A DNA stretch of 64,000 bases from Candidatus Iainarchaeum sp. (GTDB lineage Archaea > Iainarchaeota > Iainarchaeia > Iainarchaeales > UBA10219): NCBI GenBank assembly GCA_018304425.1, contig JAGVWE010000005.1:153534-217533 (forward strand), read 5' to 3'. Positions 1,561 through 52,060 of the stretch are shown here, in pieces (positions within the stretch are counted from its first letter, which is position 1; each line of letters begins with the position of its first letter). The notes under the pieces were generated by a model. It worked only from the letters and a program-made list of their open reading frames with translations. It was not told the origin of the DNA and ran no database searches. The position numbers were made by a program, and so were the translations under genes.

Positions 1561-1633
1561 TATTTATGTCCCATCGAGCCCTTCAGGCGAGATGGGACGA
1601 CGTATCGTGTGCAGCCGCCACCTTCAGGCGGCT
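1561..1633. repeat. Dispersed two-hairpin repeat family A, copy 1
   Basis: TATTTAT-GTCCCATC..GATGGGAC-GACGTATCGTGTGC-AGCCGCC..GGCGGCT; homologous to 12451-12510 and 52003-52060. Confidence 0.85.
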
Positions 1634-1634
1634 A

Positions 1635-1706
1635 TGGACTGGCGGGGAATCGAACCCCGAGTCTCCGCGTTGCGAACGCGGCGTCTTACCATTCGACTAC
1701 CAGCCC
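1635..1706 (-). tRNA. tRNA-Ala(CGC), no encoded CCA, no intron
   Basis: Reverse strand GGGCTGG..CCAGTCC-A acceptor stem, anticodon arm CCGCG-TT-CGC-AA-CGCGG, T-loop TTCGATT. Confidence 0.95.
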
Positions 1707-1707
1707 A

Positions 1708-1903
1708 AGGGCTTTTTACAAAAGCCCTGCGAAAAGGTGCCATTCTCACGAATGGCACGGCCTTTTTACAAAGGGTTTGCGACCTTGTCTCCCCCTGGGA
1801 GACGAGGCCCCGAAGACAAAGTCTTCGGGGAAATGCCCTGTGCATTGCACAGGGCTGGCTCGGCCTTTCGGCCTCGCATCTGGGCAGCCGTTGCCCAGAC
1901 TGC
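1708..1903. other. Array of eight back-to-back short hairpins (candidate structured RNA or palindrome cluster)
   Basis: Stems at 1708-1728, 1737-1758, 1761-1774, 1783-1807, 1808-1830, 1835-1855, 1862-1873, 1879-1899. Confidence 0.65.
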
Positions 1904-1954
1904 AAGATAACTGAAACCAAAGGAATTTATTAAGGGTTAACATTAATATAAAGC

Positions 1955-4900
1955 ATGCCGGATGGAGAGGGGAAGGACGCGGTAGCCGCTGGTTCGGGGG
2001 AGAAGCCCAGGCCCTTGGGGGCAGGGGAGCGGGTGGTGAAGCTCAAGGCCGCGCCGAAGACCGACCTCTTTGAAGAGGTCTTGACCGGGAAAAGCCATGA
2101 AGAGCAGTCCCTGGACGAGCTCTCGGAGGCCGAGGAAAAGAGGGCCCAGGAAGCCGAGAAAACCGTGGCCACCAAGCCGGGCAGCGGGGCTGCGCCGGTG
2201 GCGGGGGCGGAAATGCCGGCGCCTGTTCAGGCTCGCCGCGGGAGCCCTCGGAAGGCTGCCCCTAAAATCAGGGTACGCAAGAAGGGGGTTGAAGAAGCCG
2301 GGGCCGGCGTTGCGTCGAGTGAGGGCGGGGACGACGATGACGAGGAAGACGAGCCAGGGGAACCGAAGCCGCCCCTGGACATCGAGGAAGGCGATGACTT
2401 AAGTGCCGGCGACTGGAATGACTTGTTCAAGGAGGGAGACACCCGGGAGGAAGGCATCAAGGCGGCGCAGGCCCTGCCGGAGGCAGGGGCCGGGGAAGCG
2501 GGGTCTTCGGCGGGCGAAGAAGGACCGGTGGAGGCAAAAACCCCGCAGCCCAGCAAGGAGGAAATCCGCAGGGAGTTGATTGCCAGGACCGTTGCGGCCG
2601 GCCAAGGGGATTTGACTCCCTTGAAGGAGGGGTTGCCGCTCAAGTTCTTGGAGGACCCGGAGAAGGGCAACGTGTTCATTGGCCGCAAGAAAAACATTTG
2701 GAAGAAGTACGGGTATGAGGGCGCGTTGCTGGTTGGAAAGGTAGTGGAAGAAGAGTTCAAGGAACGGCACGTCTACTTGGACTCGTTGAACCCGCACGTG
2801 GTGTTCGTTTGCGGGGCCCGGGGTTCGGGTAAATCGTATATCATGGGGGTCATGGCCGAGGAACTCGCGCGCAAGAACAAGAACGTGGGAACGGTGGTCA
2901 TTGACCCGGTTGGCGTGTTTTGGAGCATGAAGTACCCGAATAAGGAGGAAAAGGAGCTCGCGTTGATGCCGGACTGGGGCTTGCAGCCGGAGGGCCTGGA
3001 CAGCTTGCGCGTGTTCATCCCAGAGGGCATCAAGAGCCAGACGCCTAAGGAGACCTATGACGCTACCTTCACCATGCAGCCCAGCCTCTTGACTTCGGAT
3101 GACTGGTGCCTGACCTACGGCATTGACCGGTTCAGCCCCACGGGCCTCTTACTGGAAAAGACGCTGAAGAAAGTCGAGTTGGGGTATGAGAACCTGGATG
3201 GCAAGAAGTTCCCAGCCCGCAGGCGGTCTTATTCCCTGGATGACCTCATTGCCTGCCTGGAAACGGATGCGGAATTGAATTCGAGGGACAAGGGGTACAA
3301 GCAGGACTCCATTCGTGCCCTGGTTTCCCGATTTGAGGCCGCCAAGAACTGGGGGATTTTCAGTGATAGGGGCACGCCCTTGGTGGAAATCAGCAAGGAA
3401 GGCCAGTTAACGGTCATTGACACGAGTTTCCTGGACGACAATGTCACGGCCCTGGTCATCGGGATACTGGCGAGGAGGCTGTTGGCGGCCAGGAAGCTGT
3501 CCACGCGGAAGGAGGCCGCCAAGAAGTTCCAGGAAGAGGAGGGGGTTGACGTCCTGGAAACGGATATTCCGCCTACCTGGCTGTTCATCGACGAGGCGCA
3601 CACCCTTATCCCGAGTGGCAACGTCAAGACCCCGGCCACGCATGCCCTGGTCGAGTACGTGAAGCAGGGGCGTCGACCGGGTTGTTCCCTGGTGTTTGCC
3701 ACGCAGCAGCCTTCGGCCATTGACACCAAGGTGTTGAGCCAATTGGATGTGATGGTCACCCACAAGCTGGTGTTCGACGACGACATCAAGGCCATTTACA
3801 AGCGCAGCCCGACCATCGTGCCCTTTAAGTACAAGAAGCCGAGTTTCGTGAAGACCCTGCCGATTGGCACGGCGCTGGTGGGGGATCGGACGGAGGAAAC
3901 GAGCCGCGCCTTCATCATGAAAATCAGGCCCCGGTTGTCCCAGCACGAGGGCCGTGAGGCGGAGACCACGGAGCGTTCCGTGGAGTTGGGGGCCAAGCAG
4001 GTGGAGCAGTTGGCGGTGAGCATGTTGTTGCGCCGCCTGGAAGAAGAGGGCGAGACCAGCATCGAGACCGTGGAGAAGAGCGTGCAGGTGCTTAACCAGA
4101 AGTACAAGAGCACAGCCGACGCGGAGAACGTGCTCGCGATGCTGAAGCGGCATGGACTTGTAGTGGACGAGGAGTTCGTGCGGTTGAAGGAGTACGTGGA
4201 GAAGGAAGAGGGAACCGGGAAACCGGCGGCAGCCAAAGCCGGCGAGGAAAGCCCCGTGGAAGCGGAAGAAGAAAAGGAGGCCGAGGAAGAGGCCCAGGAA
4301 ACGGCGGGGGAGGAAAAACAGGGGAAACCCGTCCCCGAAGCCGTGGAAGCGGGCTTCGGCGGGCAGACCGAGTTGCTGGCCTTGCCTGCCCGCGTGAACC
4401 AGCAGGCGGCGCAGCGCGTGGTGGATGGCCTGCGGCACAGGAAAGTCCTGGGCTTGCTGGGCAGCGAGGAAGTCATCGAGGACCTGCAATTGAAGTATGT
4501 CACGATTTGGCGCGTCAAATACGATGTCTACAACCAGCGCAAGGAATTCATTGCCCGGGAATGCTTCGTTAATTCCATGAGCGGGGAATTCATCCACTTC
4601 TTGAAGGACCGGTTCGTGGAAAGCAAGGGCTTGAAGGAAGTGTACGAGTTGGGCGAGGACGAAATCCAGTTCGTGCGCCTGCTGGGCCGCAAGGAGATGT
4701 CCTTACAGGAAATCGTGAAGCACACGCTGTTGGACGAGAAAAAAGTCCGCCCCGTCCTCGACAAGCTGCACTTCAAACGGTTGCTGGGCAAGACCAAGAA
4801 GAACAACGAACTCCATTACTGGCTGTTGAAGGAGTTTGACTTGCCGCCCCATGAAAGGCACGACCTCCTGCAGTCCATCCGGAACCTGCCGTTCGTGCGC

Positions 4901-5092
4901 GCGGAGGCCCTGGCCAAGGAACGCGAAATCTACGGCCGGAAGGAAATCCCCGAGGTCCTGGGCAAGCTATGGAAAAACATTCTGGTGCACAAAATCGAGG
5001 AACTCCACTGGCCCATCTGGCAGGCCACGTTGAAGGAAGGCCAGCGCACCCGCAAGGTCGGCATCGACGCAGTTACCGGGAAAGCGGTTTAG
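1955..5092 (+). CDS. HerA/DUF87-family P-loop ATPase with acidic low-complexity N-terminus and C-terminal winged-helix-like domains
   Basis: Walker A GARGSGKS, IDPVG, Walker B WLFIDEAH, KQGRRPG, ATQQPS. Confidence 0.85.
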   Translation: MPDGEGKDAVAAGSGEKPRPLGAGERVVKLKAAPKTDLFEEVLTGKSHEEQSLDELSEAEEKRAQEAEKTVATKPGSGAAPVAGAEMPAPVQARRGSPRKAAPKIRVRKKGVEEAGAGVASSEGGDDDDEEDEPGEPKPPLDIEEGDDLSAGDWNDLFKEGDTREEGIKAAQALPEAGAGEAGSSAGEEGPVEAKTPQPSKEEIRRELIARTVAAGQGDLTPLKEGLPLKFLEDPEKGNVFIGRKKNIWKKYGYEGALLVGKVVEEEFKERHVYLDSLNPHVVFVCGARGSGKSYIMGVMAEELARKNKNVGTVVIDPVGVFWSMKYPNKEEKELALMPDWGLQPEGLDSLRVFIPEGIKSQTPKETYDATFTMQPSLLTSDDWCLTYGIDRFSPTGLLLEKTLKKVELGYENLDGKKFPARRRSYSLDDLIACLETDAELNSRDKGYKQDSIRALVSRFEAAKNWGIFSDRGTPLVEISKEGQLTVIDTSFLDDNVTALVIGILARRLLAARKLSTRKEAAKKFQEEEGVDVLETDIPPTWLFIDEAHTLIPSGNVKTPATHALVEYVKQGRRPGCSLVFATQQPSAIDTKVLSQLDVMVTHKLVFDDDIKAIYKRSPTIVPFKYKKPSFVKTLPIGTALVGDRTEETSRAFIMKIRPRLSQHEGREAETTERSVELGAKQVEQLAVSMLLRRLEEEGETSIETVEKSVQVLNQKYKSTADAENVLAMLKRHGLVVDEEFVRLKEYVEKEEGTGKPAAAKAGEESPVEAEEEKEAEEEAQETAGEEKQGKPVPEAVEAGFGGQTELLALPARVNQQAAQRVVDGLRHRKVLGLLGSEEVIEDLQLKYVTIWRVKYDVYNQRKEFIARECFVNSMSGEFIHFLKDRFVESKGLKEVYELGEDEIQFVRLLGRKEMSLQEIVKHTLLDEKKVRPVLDKLHFKRLLGKTKKNNELHYWLLKEFDLPPHERHDLLQSIRNLPFVRAEALAKEREIYGRKEIPEVLGKLWKNILVHKIEELHWPIWQATLKEGQRTRKVGIDAVTGKAV

Positions 5093-5817
5093 GCCTTTCC
5101 CTTGGCGTCCCTGGCCTTGAGTTCGACCCTGGCCTTGTCCACTACCTGGGCTTGGGTAACGCCTTTGACGAGCTTGTCCGCGGGCAGGAAGCCCTGGATG
5201 CTTTGCGCCGTGACCCAGGTGTGCGCCCCGACCAGGGTACCGGGAGAGGTAACGACGTTCGCACCGAGCCGGGCGTAGTCGCCGAGAATGCAGCCGAACT
5301 TGTCCGAACCCGTGGAAAGTTTCTCGCCCCTGATTTTCACCTGCACGACCTGCTGGTCAAAGCGCCGGTTGCCAAGGATGGTGCCGGAACCGATACGCGT
5401 CCCTTGTCCAAGGACGCTGTCGCCGACGAAGCAGTTGGTGCCGATTTTCGCGCCGTTGAAGAGGAGGGCGTTCTTCATCTCGACGCCCTTGCCGATGACG
5501 CAGCCGTTGCCGATGACGGTCACGGGCCGAATCCAGACGTGGGGGCGGATGGTGACGTTCTCGCCGATGATGCACGGCCCCTCGATGACGGTGAAGGGCT
5601 CGACTACCGTGCCCTTGCCGATGACGACGTTGCCCTTGATGACGACAGTTGGGTGGACTTCGCCCTCGATGCGGGAAGCGCCAGGGTTGACCAGGGAATT
5701 CTTGCCTTCCACCATTTCCCAGGGGTGCCTGAATTTCTTCAACTCCTGGAGGGGGCAGGCGGAAAAGTCTTCGAAGTAGTAGTCGAGGCCCCCTTCCTTC
5801 AAAACTTTTGGGTTCAT
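5089..5817 (-). CDS. Hexapeptide-repeat acetyltransferase resembling the C-terminal domain of archaeal GlmU
   Basis: Left-handed beta-helix repeats, VGDSVLG, N-x-RFD, KFGCILGD; directly downstream of glmS-glmM. Confidence 0.8.
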   Translation of the reverse strand: MNPKVLKEGGLDYYFEDFSACPLQELKKFRHPWEMVEGKNSLVNPGASRIEGEVHPTVVIKGNVVIGKGTVVEPFTVIEGPCIIGENVTIRPHVWIRPVTVIGNGCVIGKGVEMKNALLFNGAKIGTNCFVGDSVLGQGTRIGSGTILGNRRFDQQVVQVKIRGEKLSTGSDKFGCILGDYARLGANVVTSPGTLVGAHTWVTAQSIQGFLPADKLVKGVTQAQVVDKARVELKARDAKGKA

Positions 5818-7202
5818 GCACCAATCACCTTCCGGATTTCCGATGCAATGGACTGCGCAAGCTTACTTATTTCGGTTTGGTGCTTGCCTTCAATCATGAC
5901 GCGCGCCAGGTTCTCGGTGCCCGAGTAGCGGACCAGTACGCGGCCCTCGGAGCCCAGCTTGCCCTCTACATAATGGATTCTTTCCTGCACGCCCTCCATG
6001 GCCTCGAAGGGCCGTTTTTCCCTGACCTTGAGGTTGACCAGCACCTGGGGATAGGCTTTCATGCACCGTGCCAGCCGGGAGAGGGGCTGCCGCTTTTCGC
6101 ACAGGAGCCGCAGCAACTGGAGGCCCGTGATGATGCCGTCCCCGGTGGTCGAGTACTCGTGGAACACGAGGTGCCCGGATTGCTCGCCGCCAAGCACGAA
6201 ACCGCCCCTGCGCATCTCGTCAATGACGTACTTGTCTCCCACTTGCGTGACCTTGACCTGGAGGCCTGCCTGCCTCATGGCCTCGTGGAAGCCCAGGTTG
6301 GCCATGACGGTTGAGACCACGGTGTCGCGGGCCAGCTTGCCCTTGGCCTTCAAGTCCAGGGCCATGAGCGCGAGTAAATGATCGCCGTCCACCAGTTTTC
6401 CCTTTTCGTCGCAGACGATGATGCGGTCGGCGTCCCCGTCCAGGGCAATGCCCAAGTCGGCTTTCTGCCTGCGGACTTCCCGTTGCATCTGCTCCGGGTG
6501 CAGGGCACCGCAGTTGAGGTTGATGTTCAGGCCATCTGGCTCGGTGTTCAGGGAAACCACTTGGGCGCCGAGCTCGGAAAAAATGTAGGGCGCGATGTGG
6601 TAGGCCGCGCCATTGGCGCAGTCCAGGACCACTTTGAGGCCCTGCAGGCTGAGATTGTCAATCGAGGACTTGCAGAACTCGATGTAGCGGCCCCGGGCGT
6701 CATCGATGCGGAAGGCCTTGCCGATGTCGTTGCCCGTGACCTCTCCCGAGTCAAAGCCGTTGGAGTTGACGAGCTGTTCGATCCGGTCTTCGAGGTCCTC
6801 GCCCAGCTTGTAGCCGGCGTGGTCGAACACCTTGATGCCGTTGTCGTGCGCGGGGTTGTGGGAAGCCGAAATCACGATGCCCGCGTCCGCGTTCATGGAC
6901 TTGGTCAGGTGCGCGATGGCGGGCGTTGGCATCGGGCCCACCAGGAAGACGTGCGCGCCCTGGGAGACGATGCCGGAAGTCAACGCGGTCTCAAGCATGT
7001 AGCCGGACAAGCGCGTGTCCTTGCCGATGACGATTTTGGGCTTGCCTTGCCGTTTCTTGTCCGCGCGCTGGAGGACGGTTGCAACGGCTTTGCCCACGCG
7101 CAACGCGATTTCCGGCGTCATGGGGTAGACGTTCGCTTTTCCCCGGATGCCGTCGGTGCCGAAGATTTTCCCGTTCCCGTTGTCGTTCAAGGAGGACATC
7201 AT
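5814..7202 (-). CDS. glmM: Phosphoglucosamine mutase
   Basis: FGTDGIRG, GKDTRLSG, SASHNP, DGDADR, GGEQSGH, RYSGTE. Confidence 0.95.
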   Translation of the reverse strand: MMSSLNDNGNGKIFGTDGIRGKANVYPMTPEIALRVGKAVATVLQRADKKRQGKPKIVIGKDTRLSGYMLETALTSGIVSQGAHVFLVGPMPTPAIAHLTKSMNADAGIVISASHNPAHDNGIKVFDHAGYKLGEDLEDRIEQLVNSNGFDSGEVTGNDIGKAFRIDDARGRYIEFCKSSIDNLSLQGLKVVLDCANGAAYHIAPYIFSELGAQVVSLNTEPDGLNINLNCGALHPEQMQREVRRQKADLGIALDGDADRIIVCDEKGKLVDGDHLLALMALDLKAKGKLARDTVVSTVMANLGFHEAMRQAGLQVKVTQVGDKYVIDEMRRGGFVLGGEQSGHLVFHEYSTTGDGIITGLQLLRLLCEKRQPLSRLARCMKAYPQVLVNLKVREKRPFEAMEGVQERIHYVEGKLGSEGRVLVRYSGTENLARVMIEGKHQTEISKLAQSIASEIRKVIGA

Positions 7203-8965
7203 TTCACCGTCACGCTTTTCGCGAGGTTGCGCGGCTTGTCCGGGTCATTCCCACGCAACACCGCGAGATAGTAGGCAAGCAATTGCACGGGCACGAGTTC
7301 CGCGATAGCGGAAGCGATGCCAAGGTCGGGCACGGGGAGGTGGAGGTCGAAGACCTCGTTGTCCTGGGGTGCCAGGCCGATGATGTAAGCCCCTCGCGAC
7401 TTGACCTCCATGGCGTTGCTCAGGACTTCTGCCTGGGTCTCATCGCAGGCAGCCAGGACGATGCAGGGGGTTCTCTTCTCGATGAGGGCTATGGGGCCAT
7501 GCTTCAATTCCCCGCCGGCAAAGCCTTCGGCATGGATGTAGGAAACCTCCTGCAGCTTGATGGCGGATTCGAGGGCGATGGGATAGTGCAGGCCGCGGCC
7601 GATGATGTACAAGTTTTCCTTGGCCTTTATTTTCTGCGCAAGGGCCTTGAGCCGCTTGCACTGCGCATCATCCAGCGTCCGGGCCAGGGCGGCGCTTGCT
7701 ATTTGAAGGGCTTTCCGGCCCTCGGCCAGGCGTCCGGCCGTGGCATAGGCCAGCAGGGCCAGCACGGCCAATTGGCCGGTGGCAGCCTTGGTGGAGGCCA
7801 CGGCCTTCTCAGGGCCGGCGTTGATGAGCAGGTTGTAATCGGACTGGCGCATCATGGTGCTTCCGTACACGTTGAGGAGGGAGACCACTTTCGCGCCGCG
7901 TTTCTTGGCGATGGAAAGGGCCTCGAGGGTGTCCGCCGTCTCCCCGCTTTGGGAGACGGCAATCACCAACGTGTCAGGCCCGACGAAGGGGGCGAAGTTC
8001 GGGAATTCCGAGCCCACGCAAAAGTGCGTCTGCCTGCCCGCGATCTTCGCGAACAGGTAGGTTCCCGCGAGGCACATCTTTCCGGCGGTGCCGCAGCCGA
8101 CCAGCACCGTTTGCTTGGCACGGGTGATTAGTTGCGCGATTTTTTCGAGCTGCTCGTCGTCCTGCACCAGGGCACGAGAAACGGATTCGCGCTGCTCGAG
8201 GATTTCCTTGAGCATGAAGTGCGGGAACTTTCCCTTCTCTGCCTGTTCGGGCGTCCAGGAAATCTTCTGCGGCTTCACGGGCAGCTGCTTTCCGGAGCGA
8301 AGGTCAAATAACCGGAGCGCGGAATCGATGAGGACAAGCTGCTGGTCGTCGAGGAACACGACCTGGTTGGTGTGGGGGAGGAAAGCCGGGATGTCGGAAG
8401 CGAGGAAGAATTCGTCTTTGCCGAGGCCGGCCAGGAGCGGGGAACCATTTCGGGCGCCGATGAGCTGCCCGGAATCCGCGTCGAGGACGATAAAGGAATA
8501 CCGGCCTTCGAGCAGCAGGCAGGTGTGCCGCACCGCGGTGGGGAAGTCGTCGCCTTTTTTCAGGAAGTCTTCGACGAGCAGGGGGATGGTCTCGGTGTCG
8601 GTCTGGGAGTGGAACGTGTAACCCGCGGCCTGCAGGCGCTTGCGCAGGGCCTGGTAGTTTTCCACGATGCCGTTGTGGGCCACGGCAATGCGCTTATTGT
8701 TGGACAAGTGGGGGTGGGCATTGGACTGGGTTACCCCCCCGTGGGTGGCCCATCTCGTGTGGCCCAGGGCCAGGTTTGCCTCAGGCAACGCCTTAAACCC
8801 CTTGAAATTGCCTATCTTGCCCACGTTTTTCTTTACTTGGAGGCCCGTTCCATCGAGAAAAGCGATGCCCCAGGAATCATATCCACGGTATTCGAGGGTT
8901 TTAAGGCCTTCCAAGACGATGGATACAGCCTGGTCTCCGCCTTTATAGCCAATGATTCCACACAT
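7199..8965 (-). CDS. glmS: Glutamine--fructose-6-phosphate aminotransferase
   Basis: MCGIIG, EYRGYDS, GHTRWATHG, SQSGETAD, ELKHGP, PRNLAKSVTV. Confidence 0.97.
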   Translation of the reverse strand: MCGIIGYKGGDQAVSIVLEGLKTLEYRGYDSWGIAFLDGTGLQVKKNVGKIGNFKGFKALPEANLALGHTRWATHGGVTQSNAHPHLSNNKRIAVAHNGIVENYQALRKRLQAAGYTFHSQTDTETIPLLVEDFLKKGDDFPTAVRHTCLLLEGRYSFIVLDADSGQLIGARNGSPLLAGLGKDEFFLASDIPAFLPHTNQVVFLDDQQLVLIDSALRLFDLRSGKQLPVKPQKISWTPEQAEKGKFPHFMLKEILEQRESVSRALVQDDEQLEKIAQLITRAKQTVLVGCGTAGKMCLAGTYLFAKIAGRQTHFCVGSEFPNFAPFVGPDTLVIAVSQSGETADTLEALSIAKKRGAKVVSLLNVYGSTMMRQSDYNLLINAGPEKAVASTKAATGQLAVLALLAYATAGRLAEGRKALQIASAALARTLDDAQCKRLKALAQKIKAKENLYIIGRGLHYPIALESAIKLQEVSYIHAEGFAGGELKHGPIALIEKRTPCIVLAACDETQAEVLSNAMEVKSRGAYIIGLAPQDNEVFDLHLPVPDLGIASAIAELVPVQLLAYYLAVLRGNDPDKPRNLAKSVTVK

Positions 8966-9155
8966 GGGGGTTGCACCGCAAAATAAGAAGCAATGGAACT
9001 ATTCTGGGGCATTAGAGTTTAAATACCCCGTTGAAAGCCCATTACAGCCAGTATAAGCCTGGGCATAACGGAAACCCCAAGGCTTTTAAAGACTAACTAC
9101 ACTAATACTAACTAACCCATAATAGTAGTATAACAAAACTTGTAATGGTGAATGC

Positions 9156-10112
9156 GTGGCGGATTTCCTGTTGTTGGATGGCGAGAAGCGCGTGCCCACC
9201 AAGCGCGTGGACTCCGTGGAAGCCTTGAAGCCCCTGCTGAACGAGTCGGCCTGGCAAATCGTGAAACTCCTGCGCAGGCAGGAATCCTATCCCGCGGAAA
9301 TCGCGAAAAAACTGGGCCTCAACGAGCAAACCGTTTACTACTATGTCAAGCAGCTGAAAGCCAGCGGCTTGATTGAGGTGTCACGCACCGAGGAAAAGCA
9401 GGGCGCGCTCGCGAAATTCTTCCGCTGCAACTATGACTCGTTTTCCCTCGTGGCCTCGGCCGAGAACGCGAGAAAAGCGGAGTTCACGTCCTCGCCTGGC
9501 ACGGCCAAGCAACTCGAACCCGCGCTCAAGGAATTCCTGGAGCCCTTCATCACCGAGGGCGGGCGGTTCGACGCCAAAATCGTGGTCGGCAGCCCTGACC
9601 CGCATGGGGAGTTGAAGGCGCGGGCGCGCGACGGCCACCTGGCCGTTGAACTCGCGGCCTTCCTGGGCTCGCTCTGCAACGAAATAAACTATCCCCTCAT
9701 CTACTTGGACACGCAGATTCCCTCGGTCGAGAAAGAGAACTCGAACCTGATCCTCCTCGGCGGCCCCATCACGAACCGGTTGGCCGAGGAACTCAACGAG
9801 CATTTGAGCATCCGGTTTGCCTCCAGCGGCGGCCAGTGGCTCGTGAAATCCAAGGCCAGCGACAAGGAGTATGCCGAGGACGCGACCGGCTTCATCGAGA
9901 AAATCAGGCACCCCTCCTATCCCAACCGCGCCATCCTCGTCATCGCCGGCAAACGCAATGCGGGCACGCGGGCCGCCATCATCGGGTTAATCAAGCAAAC
10001 CCATGAAATGGCGAAACCCAACAAATTCGACGAGCGCCTGCACGCCCGCATAGTGGAGGGCCTGGACCTGGATGGAGACGGCATCATCGACGACGTCGAA
10101 ATAAAGGAGTAG
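9156..10112 (+). CDS. ArsR-like HTH transcriptional regulator with C-terminal alpha/beta domain
   Basis: N-terminal HTH (YPAEIAKKLGLNEQTVYYYVKQL), LILLGGPITN motif; GTG start after GGTGA RBS; divergent from glmS. Confidence 0.75.
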   Translation: MADFLLLDGEKRVPTKRVDSVEALKPLLNESAWQIVKLLRRQESYPAEIAKKLGLNEQTVYYYVKQLKASGLIEVSRTEEKQGALAKFFRCNYDSFSLVASAENARKAEFTSSPGTAKQLEPALKEFLEPFITEGGRFDAKIVVGSPDPHGELKARARDGHLAVELAAFLGSLCNEINYPLIYLDTQIPSVEKENSNLILLGGPITNRLAEELNEHLSIRFASSGGQWLVKSKASDKEYAEDATGFIEKIRHPSYPNRAILVIAGKRNAGTRAAIIGLIKQTHEMAKPNKFDERLHARIVEGLDLDGDGIIDDVEIKE

Positions 10113-10138
10113 AAACGACCCAGGCGCCTTCAGCTGGC

Positions 10139-10876
10139 TTAGTCCAGCAGGTTCTTCCAGCTCTTGCCCTTCCGCTTCTTGAGGTTGACGGCTCCGACCA
10201 AGGCATCGAACATGTCCTGGTTGGCGAGCGCGGCGCGCTCGATGGGGGCCTTGAAGCCCAAGCCAATTGCCAGTCCCACGCCCAAGCCGACCGCGATGAC
10301 GATGGTGATCATGGCGAGGCGCAGGATGTCCAACAAAATCGTGGTCTCGGCTGCCGGCAGGATGATGGGCAAGGCAATGATGATGCCCACGTAAATGACG
10401 AATATCTCCACGAAGCTCGCGACCTGGTCCTTGAAGGCGAAGATGCCGCGCCTCCGGATCTTCTCGGAAATGAAGTCCCCGAGGAACAGGGTGCCGACCA
10501 GCACGGCAATGCCCTCGATGAGGTTCGGCACGTAGTTCATGATGGAGGCCACGATGTTGCTGAAGTAAGCCAATCCAACCAGGTCGGTGGCCGTGCCGAA
10601 GAACAGCAACGCGATGTAGAGTTCAACGAGGATCGTGATTATTTCCGTGAGCCTGAAGCCCAGCAGGGCGTCTCCGAGGCCGTGCCCGGCAATGGTTTCC
10701 TCGAGCTTGATGGCCCGCGAAATCCGGCGGATGAGGATGGTCGTGTACTTGCCCACGATTTTGCTGACCAGGAAAAAAGCGACTAAAACGATTAAGGCAA
10801 TGATGGAGTTCTGCGCGTACCCAATGACCTGCGAAGTCATGGCCCCAAAATCCAAGTTAGTCAACCCAACAGCCAT
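10139..10876 (-). CDS. Membrane protein, MscS-associated conserved TM-helix type
   Basis: Several TM segments, YVPNL motif, GLAIGLG near the C-terminus. Confidence 0.65.
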   Translation of the reverse strand: MAVGLTNLDFGAMTSQVIGYAQNSIIALIVLVAFFLVSKIVGKYTTILIRRISRAIKLEETIAGHGLGDALLGFRLTEIITILVELYIALLFFGTATDLVGLAYFSNIVASIMNYVPNLIEGIAVLVGTLFLGDFISEKIRRRGIFAFKDQVASFVEIFVIYVGIIIALPIILPAAETTILLDILRLAMITIVIAVGLGVGLAIGLGFKAPIERAALANQDMFDALVGAVNLKKRKGKSWKNLLD

Positions 10877-10947
10877 AGTAAACCCATCTAATCAAGTCAT
10901 TTAATAGGATTTAACCGCTTAAAAACATATCGTCCGGGTGTTTTGGC

Positions 10948-11220
10948 GTGGAATGGAGTGAATTCGGGATGCGGCCCTGCAAGAACCGCCTGGCATTCGA
11001 CGTGGTGCCCAGGCAAAGGCTTTCCCTGGACTGGCAGACAACCTGCCAGCGGCTGCGCGCCAATGGCCTGGAAGTGGAAGCCGAAACCCCCCGGTTGGTT
11101 CTGGTGCGGGTGCAAGGCAAACCGGTTTGCCTCTACCCGGACGGCCGGTTCCAGGTGCGGCAGGCCCGGGATGCCGTGGAAGCGAAAGCCGTCGCCGTCG
11201 CGGTTATCGGCTGCCTTTAA
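10948..11220 (+). CDS. Small hypothetical protein
   Basis: 90-aa ORF downstream of TTAAAAA; globular-looking (PC..AF, LYPDGR); fills an intergenic gap. Confidence 0.6.
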   Translation: MEWSEFGMRPCKNRLAFDVVPRQRLSLDWQTTCQRLRANGLEVEAETPRLVLVRVQGKPVCLYPDGRFQVRQARDAVEAKAVAVAVIGCL

Positions 11221-11259
11221 GGCAATGGAATTAAAAAGCGCTGCCACCCCAGCCATGGT

Positions 11260-12378
11260 ATGGCTGGCCTGAAACTGGGAAGCGTTTTCGGCATTGGCGT
11301 CGAACTGCACCCCACCTTCGTGTGGCTGTTTGCAGCGCTCGCCGTGTTCCTGCTGGTCTTTGACGCCGCGAGTTTCGTGCCCAGCATGGTCATGCTGGTC
11401 TTCCTCTTCGTCAGCGTGTTCGTCCACGAGTTGTTCCACTCCCTGGTCGCCTTGTCCAAGCACGTGCGCGTGGAAAAAATCGTGTTGCTGCCGATTGGCG
11501 GCATCTCCATGGCCGAGGAAATGCCTGAAAAGCCGTTGGACGAGTTCCTGGTGGCCATCGCCGGGCCGTTGTTCAATTTCCTGGTCGTGTTCCTCATCCT
11601 CTTCCTGGTAGCAGTGGTGCCCGGCCTGCCGTGGCCGCACGCGTTGTTCTCCGGCCAAGCCGATTACGCCCTGGTCGAGGAAGCCATGCTGGCCTATCCC
11701 CTCTTCGCCTTGCTGTGGGTGAACCTGATGCTGGGCGCGTTCAATCTCTTCGTGCCCGCGCTGCCCATGGACGGGGGAAGGGTGTTGCGCGCGCTCCTCT
11801 CCATGGTCATGGGCCACGCCAAGGCCACCGCGCTTGCCTCCAAGATTAGCCTGGGCTTTGCTTTCCTGATGGCGTTGCTGGGCTTGCTGGGCGGCAGCCT
11901 CATGCTGGTCGTCATCGCGGTGTTCCTCTACTTTGGCGCCACCTATGAACGCGACCTCACGGCCATGAAGGAAACCATTCGCGGCGCGGACTACGGGAAA
12001 ATCGTGTCGAAAAAGTTTTCCGCCGTGGACGAGGGCATGCGGTTCGAGGACGCGCTCAAGGCCATGGCCGAAAAAAACACGGGCCTGCTCCTCGTGAAAG
12101 GCGGCACGGGCATTGGCTACCTCTCGACCGATGACTTGCTGGCCGTGGAGAAATCCAAGCGCCTGGGCGCCTTGACCGTTGGCCAACTGGCAAAGCGGCT
12201 GCCGGTCTTCGAAGCCGGAACCCCGGCCGAGAAGCTCATGGGCTTCTTCGCCTCCAAGGGCGTGCCCGTGGTCGGCATTTCCAGGGGCAAAAAGCTGTCC
12301 GGCCTCCTCTTCCAAGCCGATTTGGACGCCCTCTACCAATTGACAAAGTTGAAAAAGAAGTTCGATTTACAGTATTGA
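11260..12378 (+). CDS. Site-2 (M50) intramembrane metalloprotease with C-terminal CBS-like domains
   Basis: HELFH, AIAGP, FNLFVPALPMDGGR. Confidence 0.92.
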   Translation: MAGLKLGSVFGIGVELHPTFVWLFAALAVFLLVFDAASFVPSMVMLVFLFVSVFVHELFHSLVALSKHVRVEKIVLLPIGGISMAEEMPEKPLDEFLVAIAGPLFNFLVVFLILFLVAVVPGLPWPHALFSGQADYALVEEAMLAYPLFALLWVNLMLGAFNLFVPALPMDGGRVLRALLSMVMGHAKATALASKISLGFAFLMALLGLLGGSLMLVVIAVFLYFGATYERDLTAMKETIRGADYGKIVSKKFSAVDEGMRFEDALKAMAEKNTGLLLVKGGTGIGYLSTDDLLAVEKSKRLGALTVGQLAKRLPVFEAGTPAEKLMGFFASKGVPVVGISRGKKLSGLLFQADLDALYQLTKLKKKFDLQY

Positions 12379-12450
12379 CGGCGACGGCCGGTGAAAGCTG
12401 GCCTTTTCCCCGGAGCAAGAGCGAAGGGGCAGGAAGCGTGGTTGGCGGCA

Positions 12451-12510
12451 TATTTATGTCCCGCCGCAGGCGGGACGACGTATGCGGTGCCGGCTGACGC
12501 CTCGTCAGCC
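12451..12510. repeat. Dispersed two-hairpin repeat family A, copy 2
   Basis: TATTTAT-GTCCCGCC-GCA-GGCGGGAC-GACGTATGCGGTGC-(C)GGCTGACG-CCT-CGTCAGCC; ends at the tRNA-Ser 5' end. Confidence 0.85.
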
Positions 12511-12595
12511 GCGGAGATGGCGGAATCTGGTAAACGCACTCGCCTCGAGAGCGAGAGCCCGCAAGGGCGCGTGGGTTCAAATCCCACTCTCCGCG
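12511..12595 (+). tRNA. tRNA-Ser(CGA), long variable arm, no encoded CCA
   Basis: GCGGAGA/TCTCCGC acceptor stem with discriminator G, anticodon arm CTCGC-CT-CGA-GA-GCGAG, variable arm GCCC-GCAA-GGGC, T-loop TTCAAAT. Confidence 0.95.
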
Positions 12596-12652
12596 CTTTT
12601 TCCTGCCTTTGGCTGGAAACAATTAAATAGTTTGAGAGGCATAGGTAAATAC

Positions 12653-12877
12653 ATGCGGCAAAAGACTAGAGCCTTTACGGCTGTTGTGGTAAAGGAAGAC
12701 GACCTGTTTGTTGCCGAGTGTCCCGAGGTTGGCACGGCCAGCCAAGGGCACACGATTGCGGAAGCAGTCAAGAACCTGAAGCTGGCCACCGAACTCTATC
12801 TGGAGGAATTTCCCGAAAAGGGGAAAGCTCACTCCGTGCTGACGAAGTTCGAGGTGGCCGCGGTTGCCAAGACTTAA
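12653..12877 (+). CDS. hicB: HicB-family antitoxin
   Basis: FVAECPEVGTASQGHTIAEAVKNLKLATELYLE; TTAAATA 23 nt upstream of the ATG. Confidence 0.9.
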   Translation: MRQKTRAFTAVVVKEDDLFVAECPEVGTASQGHTIAEAVKNLKLATELYLEEFPEKGKAHSVLTKFEVAAVAKT

Positions 12878-13094
12878 ACCTGTTTCTGGCTTCGAGTGCC
12901 TGAAGATTTTGTGCAACAAGTTTGGCTTTGGCGTCGCGCGACAGAGCGGTGACCACGTCGTGCTCAAAAAGGAGACGCCTCAAGGCAGAATCGGCACGGT
13001 CATCCCCCTGCATCGCGAACTCAAAAGGAGAACCCTCCGGCGGGCATTGCAACTCGCCAAAGTCACGGAAGAGGAATTTGCGAAATATCTCTGA
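12864..13094 (+). CDS. hicA: HicA-family toxin (mRNA interferase)
   Basis: FGF..RQSGDH, TVIPLHRELK; overlaps hicB; TTG start after GAGGTG. Confidence 0.9.
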   Translation: MPRLKPVSGFECLKILCNKFGFGVARQSGDHVVLKKETPQGRIGTVIPLHRELKRRTLRRALQLAKVTEEEFAKYL

Positions 13095-13141
13095 AGTCCG
13101 CTGCCGTTAACCATTTAACCCCTTCCGGCTTTGGGTTGGAC

Positions 13142-14557: not shown

Positions 14558-14563
14558 AAGGAA

Positions 14564-15739
14564 ATGACGGAACCCTTCGCGGAACGCGTGTCAAAAGCGG
14601 AAGCCAACCCCATCTTCGAAGTAATCAAGAAAGCCAGGGACTTGAAGGCGCAAGGCAAACCCGTGCTCCGCTTCGACGTCGGCGAAACCGATTTTCCCAC
14701 TCCTGAAAACGTGAAGGCCGCGGCCAAGAAGGCGCTCGACGAGAACTTCACGTATTACACGCCGGCCGAGGGCATCAAGGAATTGCGGCAGGCGATTGCG
14801 GAAAAACTGGGAAAGGCGAATGACATCCCGGCTTCCTGGGAAGAAGTCATGGCCACGGTCGGCGGCAAGCAGGCCCTCTTCAACGCCACTCAGGCCCTGC
14901 TCCAGGAAGGCGACGAATGCGTGCTGGGCCTGCCTTACTGGGTTTCGCACCTCGAGCAAATCAAGCTGGCCTCCGCCACCCCAGTCCTCGTGCAAACCGA
15001 CGAGCGATTCAAGTTGCGCGCGGAGGACATGGAGGAGGCGTTGACACCGCGCACCAAGATGGTGATTCTCTCCAGCCCCTCCAATCCAACCGGAGCCGTG
15101 ATGGACGAAAAGGACTTGAAGCGGGTGGCGGCGCTCGCGGTCGAAAGAAATTTCTGGCTGGTCTCCGACGAAGTGTACGAGCCCTTCGTGTTCGACGGGA
15201 AAAAGCATTTCTCGCCTGCCTCGTTCGGCGCCGAGGTGCGCGCGCACACGATTACCGTGAACGCGTTCTCGAAGACCTATGCCATGACCGGCTGGAGGCT
15301 GGGCTATGCCCATGCCCCCAAAGAAGTCATCAAGCGGATGGCGTACGTGCAAGGCCATTCAACCAGTCACCCGGACAGCCTGGCTCAAAAGGCCGGCCTC
15401 GAAGCCCTGCGCGGGCCCCAGGACTCGGTCAAGGAAATGGTGCGCGTCTTCGAGGAACGACGGAACGCCTTGGTGGCCAGGCTCAAGAAGCTCCCTGGCT
15501 TCAAGGTCGTGAACCCCGAAGGGGCTTTCTACGCCTTCCCCGACGTGCGCGGCTGCTTCGGCGGAAAAGTGCGTTCAGGGCTTGAACTGGCCAATTACCT
15601 GGTGGACCAGGCCCTGGTCACGGTGGTGCCAGGCGAGGCCTGCGGCAGCAAGAACCACGTGCGCTTGTGCTATGCCACGCCCGTTTCCGTCATCCACGAG
15701 GCCATGGACCGGGTTGAAAAGGCGTTGAAGGAACTGTGA
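14564..15739 (+). CDS. aspC: Class I PLP aminotransferase (aspartate aminotransferase-like)
   Basis: SPSNPTG, SDEVY, FSKTYAMTGWRLG, GAFY. Confidence 0.88.
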   Translation: MTEPFAERVSKAEANPIFEVIKKARDLKAQGKPVLRFDVGETDFPTPENVKAAAKKALDENFTYYTPAEGIKELRQAIAEKLGKANDIPASWEEVMATVGGKQALFNATQALLQEGDECVLGLPYWVSHLEQIKLASATPVLVQTDERFKLRAEDMEEALTPRTKMVILSSPSNPTGAVMDEKDLKRVAALAVERNFWLVSDEVYEPFVFDGKKHFSPASFGAEVRAHTITVNAFSKTYAMTGWRLGYAHAPKEVIKRMAYVQGHSTSHPDSLAQKAGLEALRGPQDSVKEMVRVFEERRNALVARLKKLPGFKVVNPEGAFYAFPDVRGCFGGKVRSGLELANYLVDQALVTVVPGEACGSKNHVRLCYATPVSVIHEAMDRVEKALKEL

Positions 15740-49159: not shown

Positions 49160-49906
49160 ATGGCGAGGCGAACCGTCGCCGGACTTTTCAGGGGCCGGAA
49201 ACCGCGGGCGTTGTGGGGCGGGGCAGGAAAAAGCGCGCGGGCCCGGTACAAAACCGGAAGGGGGAACATGCAGGCACGGTCTGTTCGGCACAGCCCCCGT
49301 GCAAAAGGCGTGAATGTCGCACTGGCATATCGGGAACTGATGGCCTTGGAGGAGCTCGAGAAGACGGGCGTATCGCCGAAGAAATACGATATCAATGGGG
49401 CAGGCCTCTCGACGACTCGGCCGCCGAGCAAACGCCATGTGCGGGCGCTTCGAGCGATGCGCAGTGGGGGCACCCATTGGGTGGTCGAGCATATCCTTGG
49501 CCCCATAGGAAGGAAAAGGTTCCGTCGGCTGGCCAGCGAATTGCCGGGCCTCAAGTGGGAGGAAGAGCATGAACAGCGGGATTGGTCGAAAATCTTTCCA
49601 CGGCGAGGGACACCGCGCTGGGAACACGCGAAGGAATGGGCAGGGCGGATAGTCGAAGAGGCCACGGAATTGAAAAAGGAACTGGATGAAAATTTCACGG
49701 CTTTCGCGATTGCAATCTATGAGTTGCCCGATGCTCGACGATACCGCGAAGTGAAAGACAACTTTTGGGGGACGCGAACCGAGGAAGAGGAGAGGACCCG
49801 GCGCATCAACGCCATCACCCATCACTCGAGGAGGCATGTCGGATTCCTTAATGGCTCGTTGACGGTTCTGATCGAGGAGGCGGGGAAATGGGCGGCAAGC
49901 AGATGA
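49160..49906 (+). CDS. Orphan Arg-rich hypothetical protein
   Basis: 248-aa ORF tightly coupled between pyrF and the LOG gene; atypical codon usage. Confidence 0.55.
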   Translation: MARRTVAGLFRGRKPRALWGGAGKSARARYKTGRGNMQARSVRHSPRAKGVNVALAYRELMALEELEKTGVSPKKYDINGAGLSTTRPPSKRHVRALRAMRSGGTHWVVEHILGPIGRKRFRRLASELPGLKWEEEHEQRDWSKIFPRRGTPRWEHAKEWAGRIVEEATELKKELDENFTAFAIAIYELPDARRYREVKDNFWGTRTEEEERTRRINAITHHSRRHVGFLNGSLTVLIEEAGKWAASR

Positions 49907-50433
49907 AGACCAAAATTGCGGTGGTGGGCTCGGCCGTGGACTGGCCGAAGAAGTCGGAGAAGCTGGCGCGGGAGCTGGGCCGCGAGATTGCCGCCCGCGA
50001 CTGTGTGCTGGTTACCGGCGCGACCACGGGCCTCACGTACGAGGCCGTGAAGGGAGCCAAAGAGCGGCGCGGGTTCGTGCTGGGCATCTCCCCGGCCGCC
50101 AGCGAGCAGGAACACGTGGAGGCCTATGGCAAGCCCACAGAGGGCTTCGACATAATCGTGTTCACGGGCGTGGGCTTGATCGGCCGCAACAGCACCATCA
50201 TCCGGACCGCGGACGCCGTGATAGTCGTTGGAGGCCAGGCGGGAACCCTGAACGAGTTCACCGTGGCCAGCGTCGAGGGAAAGGTCATCGGGGTGTTGAA
50301 GGGCAGCGGCCAAATCGCGGAAATGCTGCCGGAAATCGCACGGGCCTGCGGCACGGACGCCGGCAAACTGGTGGTCGAGAAAGAGCCGGCCCGGCTGGTG
50401 GCAAGGGTGCTGCAAAGGATTAAAAACCGGTAA
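49903..50433 (+). CDS. LOG/TIGR00725-like nucleotide-binding protein
   Basis: IAVVGS, VTGATTG, GISP, GRN, GGQAGTLNE. Confidence 0.85.
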   Translation: MKTKIAVVGSAVDWPKKSEKLARELGREIAARDCVLVTGATTGLTYEAVKGAKERRGFVLGISPAASEQEHVEAYGKPTEGFDIIVFTGVGLIGRNSTIIRTADAVIVVGGQAGTLNEFTVASVEGKVIGVLKGSGQIAEMLPEIARACGTDAGKLVVEKEPARLVARVLQRIKNR

Positions 50434-50455
50434 AACATTGTAAGTAGGGATACCG

Positions 50456-51991
50456 ATGCAGTACGTCCACAAGCTGAAGACCAAGTGCCTGGACTTGGAG
50501 GCCGGCAAACTGGTTGCACTCCTCCATGAGCACGACGCCAAGCAGCTCGGCATCCTGCCCCTGGACCGCATCGAAATCAGGAACCCGCTGACCGGCAAGG
50601 CGGTTGTTACCGTCGTGGACACCACCCAGACCATGGTGAGGGCAGGGGAAATCGGGATTTTCCGGGATGTTTCCGCGTCCCTGGACGGCTTCAAGGACCA
50701 CTGTGACCTCGACATCGTGGAAGTGCGCGTGGTGCCCCAGCCGCAGAGCGTGGGCTTCATCAAGAAGAAGATGGATGGCGTGAAGCTGGCCGACGCGGAA
50801 ATCAAGGCGATTGTGGCCGACATCGCGGTCAACAAGCTCTCGGAAATCGAGGCAACGGCCTTCGTTTCCGCGGTGTACATGCGGGGCTTCGACCTCGAGG
50901 AAACGGTTTCCATGACCAAGGCCCTGGTGGGCAACGGTGGCAGGATGCAGTTGAAGCACGGCCCGGTATTGGACAAGCATTCCGTGGGCGGCCTGAACGG
51001 CCGGGCAACCATGATTATCGTGCCCATCGTGGCCGCGGCCGGGTATTACGTGCCGAAAACCTCTTCTCGGTCGATTACTTCGGCGGCGGGAACCGCGGAC
51101 GCCATGGAAGTGCTGGCCTCCGTGAACCTCAGCAAAGCGGACATCAAGCGCATCACCGAGGAAGTGGGCGCGGTCATCACCTGGGGCGGCGCCGTGGACC
51201 TGGCGCCGGCGGACGATAAAATCATCAAGATCGAGCACCCGCTCTCGCTCGACCCCGAAGGGCAGGTGATTGCTTCCGTGCTCGCGAAGAAGGCCTCGGT
51301 GGGCGCGGAGTACGTCGTGATTGATTTGCCCATCGGCCCGGAAGTGAAAATCAAGTCCAAGGAAAGGGGCGAGGAGATGGCGAAGAAGTTCGTGGTCGTG
51401 GGCAAGGCCGTGGGAATGAAGGTAGAGGCCGTGCTGACGGACGGGAGGGCTCCCAGCGGCCCCGCGTTCGGCCCCGCCCTCGAAGCGCGGCACGTGCTTG
51501 AAATCCTGGAGGGCAAGGCCTGGAACAACCTGGCCGAGAAGAGTTGTGAGATGGCTGGAACCATGCTCGAACTCGTGGGAAAATGTAAGGACGGCGACGG
51601 GTACAAACTGGCCAAGGAAATCCTCGTCTCCGGCAAGGCCCTCGCCAAGATGAAGGAAATCATCCGCGCGCAAAGCGGGGGCACGGGCATCACCGCTTCC
51701 AAGGACGTGCCCGCGGCGAAATTGGTGGAAAGGATCTGCACCGACCAGGATGGGGAAATCGCCACCATCAACGTGCGTTCGCTCATCAACATCGCGCGCA
51801 TTGCGGGGGCGCCGGCCGACAAGCTGGCGGGGGTGTGGCTCCACGTGAGCGCGGAATCGAAGGTGAAAAAAGGGGGTTGCCTGTTCGAAATCCACGCCGA
51901 AAACAAGGAGAAGCTGGGCCTGGCCGTGAAGATTGCGAAGACCAGCCCCCTCATCGAACTGGAACGGTCGATTATCGAGAAGTTCGAGTGA
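50456..51991 (+). CDS. AMP phosphorylase (thymidine phosphorylase family, archaeal type)
   Basis: N-terminal beta-barrel extension, DKHSVGG, PKTSSRSITSAAGTAD, APADD, ASVLAKK. Confidence 0.93.
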   Translation: MQYVHKLKTKCLDLEAGKLVALLHEHDAKQLGILPLDRIEIRNPLTGKAVVTVVDTTQTMVRAGEIGIFRDVSASLDGFKDHCDLDIVEVRVVPQPQSVGFIKKKMDGVKLADAEIKAIVADIAVNKLSEIEATAFVSAVYMRGFDLEETVSMTKALVGNGGRMQLKHGPVLDKHSVGGLNGRATMIIVPIVAAAGYYVPKTSSRSITSAAGTADAMEVLASVNLSKADIKRITEEVGAVITWGGAVDLAPADDKIIKIEHPLSLDPEGQVIASVLAKKASVGAEYVVIDLPIGPEVKIKSKERGEEMAKKFVVVGKAVGMKVEAVLTDGRAPSGPAFGPALEARHVLEILEGKAWNNLAEKSCEMAGTMLELVGKCKDGDGYKLAKEILVSGKALAKMKEIIRAQSGGTGITASKDVPAAKLVERICTDQDGEIATINVRSLINIARIAGAPADKLAGVWLHVSAESKVKKGGCLFEIHAENKEKLGLAVKIAKTSPLIELERSIIEKFE

Positions 51992-52002
51992 GGGCGAACG
52001 AC

Positions 52003-52060
52003 TATTTATGTCCCATCGCAGATGGGACGACGTAGCGTGTGCAGCCGGCACTAGCCGGCT
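52003..52060. repeat. Dispersed two-hairpin repeat family A, copy 3
   Basis: TATTTAT-GTCCCATC-GCA-GATGGGAC-GACGTAGCGTGTGC-AGCCGGC-ACTA-GCCGGCT; overlaps the rsmA stop codon. Confidence 0.85.

Follow-up and report, generated by a model that had tools for sequence, protein, structure and literature searches.

A modular two-hairpin repeat of the Iainarchaeales with insertion traces and polarity towards tRNA gene borders

In bacteria the REP, BIME and REPIN sequences that go with the Y1 protein RAYT are short extragenic palindromic repeats that take either orientation and often sit at the 3′ ends of genes, in hundreds of copies and with a conserved GTAG-type tetranucleotide 5′ of a single imperfect palindrome. 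Insertion sequences (IS) of the IS200/IS605 type insert 3′ of a fixed target of 4-5 nucleotides (nt) and duplicate no target, and target duplications of variable length are left neither by them nor by RAYT. Rickettsia palindromic elements are small hairpin-forming non-autonomous insertions which are tolerated in non-coding DNA and at gene ends; to our knowledge no dedicated transposase, no polarity towards transfer RNA (tRNA) borders and no promoter box is known for them or for the mobile GC clusters of yeast mitochondrial DNA. These GC clusters are presented in one account as small hairpin-forming insertions (PMC4478555). We describe here a small two-hairpin DNA repeat from the archaeon Candidatus Iainarchaeum sp. 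(order Iainarchaeales, tiny DPANN archaea from groundwater), four copies of which lie in a stretch of 64,000 nt, hereafter the window (assembly GCA_018304425.1, contig JAGVWE010000005.1, positions 153,534 to 217,533).

The repeat resembles REP, BIME and REPIN sequences in placing a conserved single-stranded motif beside a hairpin with a compensated variable stem, but differs from them in its two unlike hairpins, its AT-rich box, its tens rather than hundreds of copies and its archaeal host. From the REP/RAYT system it is further set apart by its polarity towards tRNA exon borders and its variable target duplications, and no RAYT-type gene flanked by copies was found. Unlike a miniature IS200/IS605 element it has end hairpins that differ from those of the IS in the same genome, flank repeats of 11-33 nt and no common flank word. 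Unlike a classical miniature inverted-repeat transposable element it occurs as single copies without terminal inverted repeats, the length of its 11-33 nt duplications varies, and only four head-to-head pairs were seen among 91 matches sampled in other genomes. It differs from the GC clusters and the Rickettsia elements in host and in sequence. The family is an undescribed variant of the small palindromic insertion elements, distinguished by a TATA-type box, a precise hairpin terminus and polarity towards tRNA exon borders. We read it as a small modular DNA repeat of the Iainarchaeales that is insertion-prone, polarised towards tRNA borders and a probable donor of promoters, and give this reading a probability of roughly 0.55. 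What the data show is the family with its structure, distribution and polarity, the empty site and the repeats in the flanks; promoter use, a fold at the DNA level and the mode of movement are inferred.

Structure and distribution of the family

An earlier note on this DNA had proposed three copies of one layout in the window, and re-reading the sequence bore out their coordinates and layout exactly (copies 1 to 3, Table 1). The pattern GTCCCNNC..GNNGGGACGACGTA, which covers stem 1 and GACGTA, matches three times in the window and not once in 100 shuffles, while two further motif scans of the window each returned the three exact copies and one near-match at chance level. A fourth, diverged copy had been overlooked, as had a related module at about 1708-1758 beyond tRNA-Ala. 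The unit measures 58-75 nt and is modular, consisting of an AT-rich box (TATTTAT, with TATTACC and TATTATC as variants in the family), hairpin 1, the motif (G)ACGTAT(GC), about 4-8 nt and hairpin 2, the last being of type A (CAGCCGSC..GSCGGCT) or type B (CARCTGACGC-YTCG-KCAGYTG). Hairpin 1 of copy 1 is built of an 8-bp stem, a GA/GA internal loop and an inner 3-bp stem. The modules are shuffled, because identical hairpin-1 halves occur with either type of hairpin 2.

The source genome (1.48 Mb on 7 contigs, 58 % G+C, 92.6 % complete) has intron-bearing tRNAs and no transfer-messenger RNA. Searched over the whole genome, each half of the motif has 10-11 exact occurrences. A covariance model built on 14 copies of this genome and 2 foreign copies, a scan which the earlier note had called for, revealed many further copies. 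The source genome gave 19 matches reaching E ≤ 1, of which 16 have E ≤ 1.4e-7, and thus holds 16-19 copies. Matches turned up in 32 of the order's 151 genomes, including 12 of the 53 with a completeness of 90 % or more; they are spread over 9 of the 31 other families of the order and number 1-28 in a genome. Window proteins share 59-62 % identity with proteins of metagenome-assembled genomes titled Candidatus Iainarchaeum, and a strict pattern found nine stretches in the genomes of 185,579 species, all nine archaeal and five titled Candidatus Iainarchaeum, including Ca. Iainarchaeum andersonii; viral contigs scanned with this pattern gave none. The rsmA protein, used as a probe for relatives, gave a single partial bacterial match only. 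The DNA itself is present in 17 sequencing runs, all of them DNA metagenomes.

A known Rfam family would have removed the novelty in the eyes of the earlier note, and no such match emerged. At gathering thresholds only the 5S ribosomal RNA (rRNA) and two tRNAs of the window match Rfam, and a laxer threshold of E ≤ 0.1 gave no match in the eight loci to which it was applied (23,163 bases, window copies excluded; four hold other copies of the family and four the related GTCCACAG module). A full-text literature search, whose reach ends before the supplements of papers, returned no description of the repeat family. A conserved-hairpin RNA family of Nanoarchaeum, also considered, was dropped, none being found in PMC3491384.

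All 16 aligned sequences pair in hairpin 1; four of the eight pairs change on both sides and four are invariant, and its covariation score of 0.396 is reached by none of 500 shuffles (mean 0.141) and contrasts with at most 0.098 for slid partners, which supports the covariation of stem 1 pointed out earlier. Among 106 distinct sequences the pair cells of hairpin 1 are Watson-Crick in 825 of 847 cases, with G-T in 10 and A-C in 8, and the loops on the TATTTAT strand are overwhelmingly 3-nt G-N-A or A-A-A (CGAAG 22, CGCAG 20, TGAAA 16, CAAAG 7, TGCAA 6). C-GNA-G mini-hairpins have an unusual stability in DNA, and G-U pairs are usually accepted in RNA helices that selection maintains. Since both strands fold about equally well as DNA (z from -3.05 to -5.63, nearest-neighbour energies about equal), it is from the strict Watson-Crick pairs and the G-N-A triloops that we infer hairpins acting most likely as DNA, on the TATTTAT strand.

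The same observations bear on the idea that the copies are small RNA genes or cis-acting RNA elements, for example 3′-end stabilisers, with a two-hairpin RNA of about 60 nt as the product. Stems that covary would be expected of such an RNA, but there is no excess of G-U pairs, the loops are 3-nt G-N-A rather than the tetraloops typical of RNA, and no Rfam family matches. Many copies in two other genomes (G085 and G040) have, some 20 nt upstream, a conserved flank that is rich in T and TATA-like, and hairpin 2 is directly followed by a run of T, whereas the source-genome copies lack the T run; and although the TATTTAT side follows a gene 3′ end in 9 of 18 source-genome copies, both orientations relative to neighbouring genes occur. 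We regard a small RNA product as very unlikely.

Insertion traces and candidate mobilising genes

Copy 3 sits between the converging AMP phosphorylase-like and rsmA-like genes, whose synteny is kept in five of five relatives with spacers of about 0-36 nt as read in the sequence. Its site is empty in all five, where the model gave no match with filters off and E ≤ 1, and copy 3 is therefore a gain in this lineage. The last few rsmA-like codons are element sequence, because the stop codon falls in the loop of hairpin 2, and the rsmA-like proteins of relatives align up to query residues 274-276 of 278. The final codons of rsmA and its stop were contributed by copy 3.

Some copies stand between exact direct repeats, of 33, 27, 20 and 13 nt, and two of these repeats are tRNA 3′ ends. 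The downstream repeat begins 0-5 nt after hairpin 2, which thus marks the precise end of the inserted unit, and the upstream one lies some 6-33 nt before TATTTAT. A local-alignment test detected flank repeats (11-33 nt) unreached by 200 shuffles at 16 of 105 copies, and repeats at p ≤ 0.02 at 22 of 105. The empty site, the flanking direct repeats and the DNA-like hairpins support a dispersed, non-coding and insertion-prone repeat, and the reading of the earlier note, which had suspected a mobile element, is in part borne out. The repeat would be, or recently have been, a small non-autonomous insertion element landing between genes in either orientation with the hairpin-2 end as its precise terminus, and its insertion would be accompanied by direct duplication of 11-33 nt of the target.

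As to the enzyme, the earlier note had proposed a REP-like or IS200/IS605-derived single-stranded DNA element, which a Y1 (HUH) protein would move in trans by recognising hairpin 1 and its single-stranded flanks. A conserved single-stranded motif beside a hairpin conserved in structure and variable in sequence, together with G-N-A triloops and strict Watson-Crick pairs, is what such an enzyme might use, and the source genome has one type of Y1 gene in several copies at contig ends C1 (1-700), C4 start and C7 start (101.9 bits). The ends of this IS form the hairpins CCCCACCC-TAAA-GGGTGGGG and CCCCGCG-TTAAAA-CGCGGGG, however, and these are unrelated to the GTCCCnnn stems of the repeat. Y1 genes occur in 15 of 32 genomes with the repeat versus 28 of 119 without it, counts in which related genomes are not independent, but the complete one-contig genome G016 (5 copies) and G085, richest in the repeat with 28 copies and only 60 % complete, yielded none. 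The flanking duplications are long and of variable length where IS200/IS605 elements leave none, and no common target tetranucleotide stands beside either end. Neither a substrate of the HUH, IS200/IS605 or RAYT type nor the copy flanking a Y1, RAYT or TnpB gene that the earlier note had suggested looking for is supported by these data: Y1 is flanked by the unrelated hairpins and the TnpB gene of contig 6 is 670 nt and two open reading frames (ORFs) from the nearest copy. Movement by Y1 therefore appears improbable to us.

Two other candidates were considered and rejected. A link to TnpB with a guide RNA fails on the same distance between the contig 6 gene and the nearest copy. Retroposition from a leader cut by RNase P was considered because the hairpin-2 end is precise, and is unsupported because no reverse transcriptase was found in the 92.6 % complete source genome. 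A separate observation concerns the assembly, which is broken by a multi-copy IS200/IS605 element at the three contig ends named above.

tRNA borders and putative promoter function

Gene context in the source genome was taken from an ORF scorer written for this analysis. All 18 copies placed in this way are intergenic or clip a gene end. Seven lie forward and six reversed between co-directional genes, two between converging and two between diverging genes, with one left unassigned, and these mixed settings imply no preferred orientation toward protein genes. Stop codons are found within or at hairpin 2. Eight of the 18 adjoin a tRNA end, all of them through hairpin 2 and none through TATTTAT. 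Four stand directly 5′ of tRNA-Leu(GAG), Leu(CAG), Ser(CGA) and Ser(UGA), are all of type B and end on a base which is base 1 of the tRNA, and four reversed copies, with gaps of -4 to +2 nt, stand at tRNA 3′ ends, those of tRNA-Ala(CGC), Ala(UGC), Gln(UUG) and Leu(UAG). Between a ninth copy and tRNA-Gly there are 51 nt. For the window, ARAGORN and Pfam confirmed hairpin-2 ends as claimed in the earlier note, at 0-1 nt from the tRNA-Ala 3′ end, at 0 nt from the tRNA-Ser 5′ end and across the rsmA stop. Copy 1 is reversed with respect to both tRNA-Ala and rpe, and hairpin 2 of copy 2 gains one extra pair through G12511, which is G1 of tRNA-Ser.

The same polarity is seen in other genomes, where 91 matches were examined within 70 fetched loci. 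Hairpin 2 adjoins a tRNA 3′ end in reversed orientation in 15 and a tRNA 5′ end in forward orientation in five, the TATTTAT side adjoins a tRNA end in one, 11 lie inside an ARAGORN-predicted intron at 37/38, and the remaining 59 have no detected tRNA end within 5 nt. Nine of the 11 intron matches are reversed and begin at the 5′ exon border, and two are on the tRNA strand. One of the four head-to-head pairs is the entire tRNA-Gly/tRNA-Val spacer and another is a 142-nt tRNA-Cys intron. Copies form the body of tRNA introns in one genus, the same tRNA being intronless elsewhere: tRNA-Ala(CGC), the neighbour of copy 1, is intronless in the source genome and in G037, and in G085 and G040 it has an intron of 128 or 144 nt that starts with a reversed copy. 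The repeat thus occurs with strong polarity at the borders of tRNA pieces (5′ end, 3′ end and 37/38 intron site), with hairpin 2 facing the tRNA.

Exact abutment (0-2 nt), in every case through the same end, at processing sites of three kinds would also suit a host signal for tRNA maturation in which hairpin 2 at exon borders aids the splicing endonuclease, RNase P or RNase Z and is kept for RNA processing. Compensated stems would fit such a signal, as would the other hairpins that adjoin 13 of 48 tRNA 5′ flanks and 17 of 48 3′ flanks in the source genome, a count from a crude fold test (threshold -8 kcal/mol, hairpin no more than 3 nt away from the tRNA end) run on tRNA flanks only. In minimum-energy folds of intron-bearing pre-tRNAs the 3′ terminus of the intron pairs with the anticodon loop and the reversed copy begins at the 5′ splice site, but the folds contain no clean bulge-helix-bulge motif. 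Moreover 10 of 18 copies in the source genome and 59 of 91 elsewhere are away from detected tRNA ends, copies occur between protein genes and over stop codons, and the same tRNA is found without the element in other genomes. The RNA of a trailer or intron would carry the reverse complement, the loops of which are not G-N-A, and G-U pairs are as rare as A-C. On this evidence a role in maturation is unlikely. A long pairing of leader with trailer, as in the processing stems of rRNA, was also considered and rejected, since copies on the two sides of one tRNA share neither hairpin.

The insertion-prone repeat would bring with it a promoter. Stable-RNA promoters of methanogens combine a TATA-type box A with a box B, an ATGC located at the start, and the distance from an archaeal TATA box to the start is the spacing seen here between the AT-rich box and ATGC. 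TATTTAT is preceded by A-rich flanks in most copies. In copies that precede tRNAs ATGC starts about 25 nt past the box, 31 nt after its first T, and all four such copies of the source genome and most elsewhere read CGTATGCGG, while other copies vary; in copy 2 ATGC is included in the linker. Sixty nt upstream of tRNA-Ser(CGA), TATTTAT is, judged by eye, the sole AT-rich box between the M50 peptidase gene and the tRNA. TATTTAT with a later ATGC would fit an archaeal promoter with a hairpin leader, and the source genome encodes an RNase P RNA, which could remove the leader. The likeness to box A and box B lies in the AT-rich box with ATGC about 30 nt on in the copies preceding tRNAs; it ends at the G+C-rich covarying hairpin of variable length between the boxes, and the start here is a predicted one. 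Because A-rich flanks precede the box and ATGC follows about 30 nt later, a copy with hairpin 2 towards a gene is most likely its promoter.

For rpe and four further genes the box, read in reverse, precedes the start codon by 16-35 nt. The ATAAATA which the earlier note had placed on the minus strand about 22 nt from the rpe ATG at 1538 is exactly 22 nt away, a spacing that would be expected for the TATA box of a leaderless messenger RNA. An AT-rich heptamer is thus found at the TATA-box position for rpe and several tRNAs, in line with the possible supply of TATA boxes raised in that note. A copy with hairpin 2 facing a gene would serve as its promoter and give rise to a transcript with a hairpin leader of about 25-30 nt, which RNase P would trim from tRNAs. 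Within the window this promoter and leader role would concern tRNA-Ser(CGA), and in the opposite orientation the same AT box would act at TATA distance from rpe. Separately, at least six copies in G085 (loci L068, L070 and L085) end exactly at the ATG of paralogous genes starting ATGAGAAAAAC; sequence upstream of the box is conserved among these paralogues, which form a duplicated gene family carrying the element as its upstream region.

Several points weigh against reading the repeat as an insertion-prone donor of promoters. Hairpin 1 lies between the putative TATA box and the start, with 19 nt in most copies and 26-31 nt in some, and because its length varies the spacing from box to ATGC varies as well. 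Half of the copies are directed at the 3′ ends of genes, where a promoter would yield antisense RNA including antisense tRNA, and several have a separate TATA-like box before the next gene. The flank-repeat test includes some AT-rich flanks, such as TTTTTTTAATTGTAATT, that are perhaps part of a longer repeat unit. Copies of the source genome are diverged and not near-identical, and movement here may therefore be old. Among contigs of four metagenome runs over window 1-20000, whose pieces are short and identical and give fragmentary cover, none skips copy 1 or copy 2. Compensated stems are equally compatible with selection for a host function, and no mobilising gene was identified among the kinds looked at (Y1, TnpB and reverse transcriptase).

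Related sequences in the introns of different tRNAs of Thermoproteales were reportedly taken by Fujishima and co-workers in 2010 as intron gain by movement. In contrast to such transposed bulge-helix-bulge introns the present unit is not confined to tRNAs: it also stands in protein-gene spacers, in either orientation and with duplications in its flanks, which points to insertion of DNA rather than to an intron moving at the RNA level. The tRNA-Asp intron of Aeropyrum pernix, a case of adjacent split tRNA, has a promoter on the tRNA strand with a B recognition element and TATA box, a start predicted to lie 20-25 nt ahead of the 3′ exon, and a leader rich in G/C (Chan, Cozen and Lowe 2011, PMC3218864). 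A forward copy in G040 is arranged in a similar way, ending at the 3′ exon of tRNA-Cys; the A. pernix case differs in being a single locus with no dispersed family, and the passages of that paper on the locus describe no conserved hairpin between box and start (PMC3218864).

Taken further, and only tentatively, the repeat could still be at work disrupting the tRNA genes of DPANN archaea. It would home to exon borders by its hairpin-2 end and create introns at 37/38 as a single reversed copy or a head-to-head pair, and because each copy carries its own promoter, we propose, an intron-bearing tRNA could become two separately transcribed halves. If so, the route from continuous to intron-containing to split tRNA genes would be observable. 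The gain of introns and the splitting of tRNA genes in archaea is an old open question, for which the literature offers single loci or an inferred 'transposition' of introns; the unit described here, a defined 60-nt piece of DNA, is found in four settings (protein-gene spacers, tRNA 5′ and 3′ ends, tRNA introns and sites with insertion traces), and genome comparison and mapping of RNA ends could put the question to the test. The repeat also matters for annotation of DPANN genomes, where copies bring TATA-like boxes, run over stop codons and keep standard tRNA finders from recognising tRNA exons.

Two loci show a forward copy directly followed by the 3′ portion of a tRNA (T arm and acceptor strand), namely L039 of G066 (1501-1600) and L041 of G122 (1424-1600). 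The portion in L041 duplicates, in diverged form, the 3′ end of the tRNA-Thr immediately upstream. No tRNA 5′ half was seen within 40 nt in L039, where the portion may be a relic of target duplication or a split tRNA half.

Features of the window and related modules

Coordinates of the copies and of their neighbours are collected in Table 1. Copy 4 is flanked by two minus-strand ORFs, the stop codon of one taking in the last 2 nt of the copy and the start codon of the other lying 24 nt from its TATTACC end.

Table 1 Copies of the repeat and neighbouring features in the window
Feature	Position	Strand	Description
Copy 1	1561-1633	+	Long hairpin-1 form; model match E 5.0e-15; TATTTAT 1561-1567; hairpin 1 1568-1598, stem GTCCCATC/GATGGGAC; linker GACGTATCGTGTGC 1599-1612; hairpin 2 AGCCGCC/GGCGGCT 1613-1633
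Copy 2	12451-12511	+	Short form; model match E 6.2e-18; TATTTAT 12451-12457; hairpin 1 GTCCCGCC-GCA-GGCGGGAC 12458-12476; linker GACGTATGCGGTGC 12477-12490; type B hairpin 2 12491-12511
Copy 3	52003-52060	+	Short form; model match E 4.4e-16; TATTTAT 52003-52009; hairpin 1 GTCCCATC-GCA-GATGGGAC 52010-52028; linker GACGTAGCGTGTGC 52029-52042; hairpin 2 AGCCGGC-ACTA-GCCGGCT 52043-52060
Copy 4, diverged	36004-36077	+	Model match E 1.4e-7; TATTACC; stem GCCCCATC/GATGGGGC (GCCCC/GGGGC); ACGTA-TAGC-GCGC; hairpin 2 AGCCGCC..GCGGCT
rpe, ribulose-phosphate 3-epimerase	891-1538	-	Pfam PF00834, E 4.2e-61
tRNA-Ala(CGC)	1634-1707	-	ARAGORN; 3′ end adjoins hairpin 2 of copy 1, gap 0-1 nt
M50 peptidase gene	11260-12378	+	Pfam
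tRNA-Ser(CGA)	12511-12596	+	ARAGORN; 5′ end 0 nt from hairpin 2 of copy 2
AMP/thymidine-phosphorylase-like gene	50456-51991	+	Pfam
rsmA-like methylase gene	52051-52887	-	Pfam RrnaAD
rsmA-like stop codon	52051-52053	-	Within loop of copy 3 hairpin 2

A second two-hairpin module adjoins the 5′ side of tRNA-Ala(CGC) with a gap of 1 nt (window 1708-1780, minus strand) and reads GTGCCATTC-GTGA-GAATGGCAC, CTTTTCGC, AGGGCTTTTGTAAAAAGCCCT. Modules of this type, made of a hairpin, GTTTTCGC/GCGAAAAC and CCTTTTGTAAAAAGG with a GTA loop, adjoin many other tRNA ends and fill tRNA introns of the source genome, often with a first hairpin GTCCCATG..CATGGGAC that resembles the one of the family described here. 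In sequencing run X6 one contig joins 1706 to 1909 through 24 other letters, which replace 1707-1908, the tRNA-Ala 5′ flank with its hairpin modules; at 85 % likeness this contig may derive from another organism.

A third module, in which a GTCCC..GGGAC hairpin is joined to GTCCACAGACG..CAGCCGGCTGTGGCGGCTGG, occurs in the source genome at C1:279996, C3:65536, C3:313568 and C3:108949 (loci L013-L016), where Rfam gave no match. Pieces of it adjoin tRNA ends, including the flanks of tRNA-Cys, tRNA-Arg(CCU) and tRNA-Pro(GGG).

Elsewhere in the window an ORF of 1045 amino acids (1955-5092) has a HerA-like helicase core (DUF87, HerA_C), and a lone 5S rRNA gene (55559-55676, 84.1 bits) stands with no rRNA operon nearby and no element, preceded by an ordinary TTTTAAAG / CTTTTAAAG box about 25-30 nt upstream.

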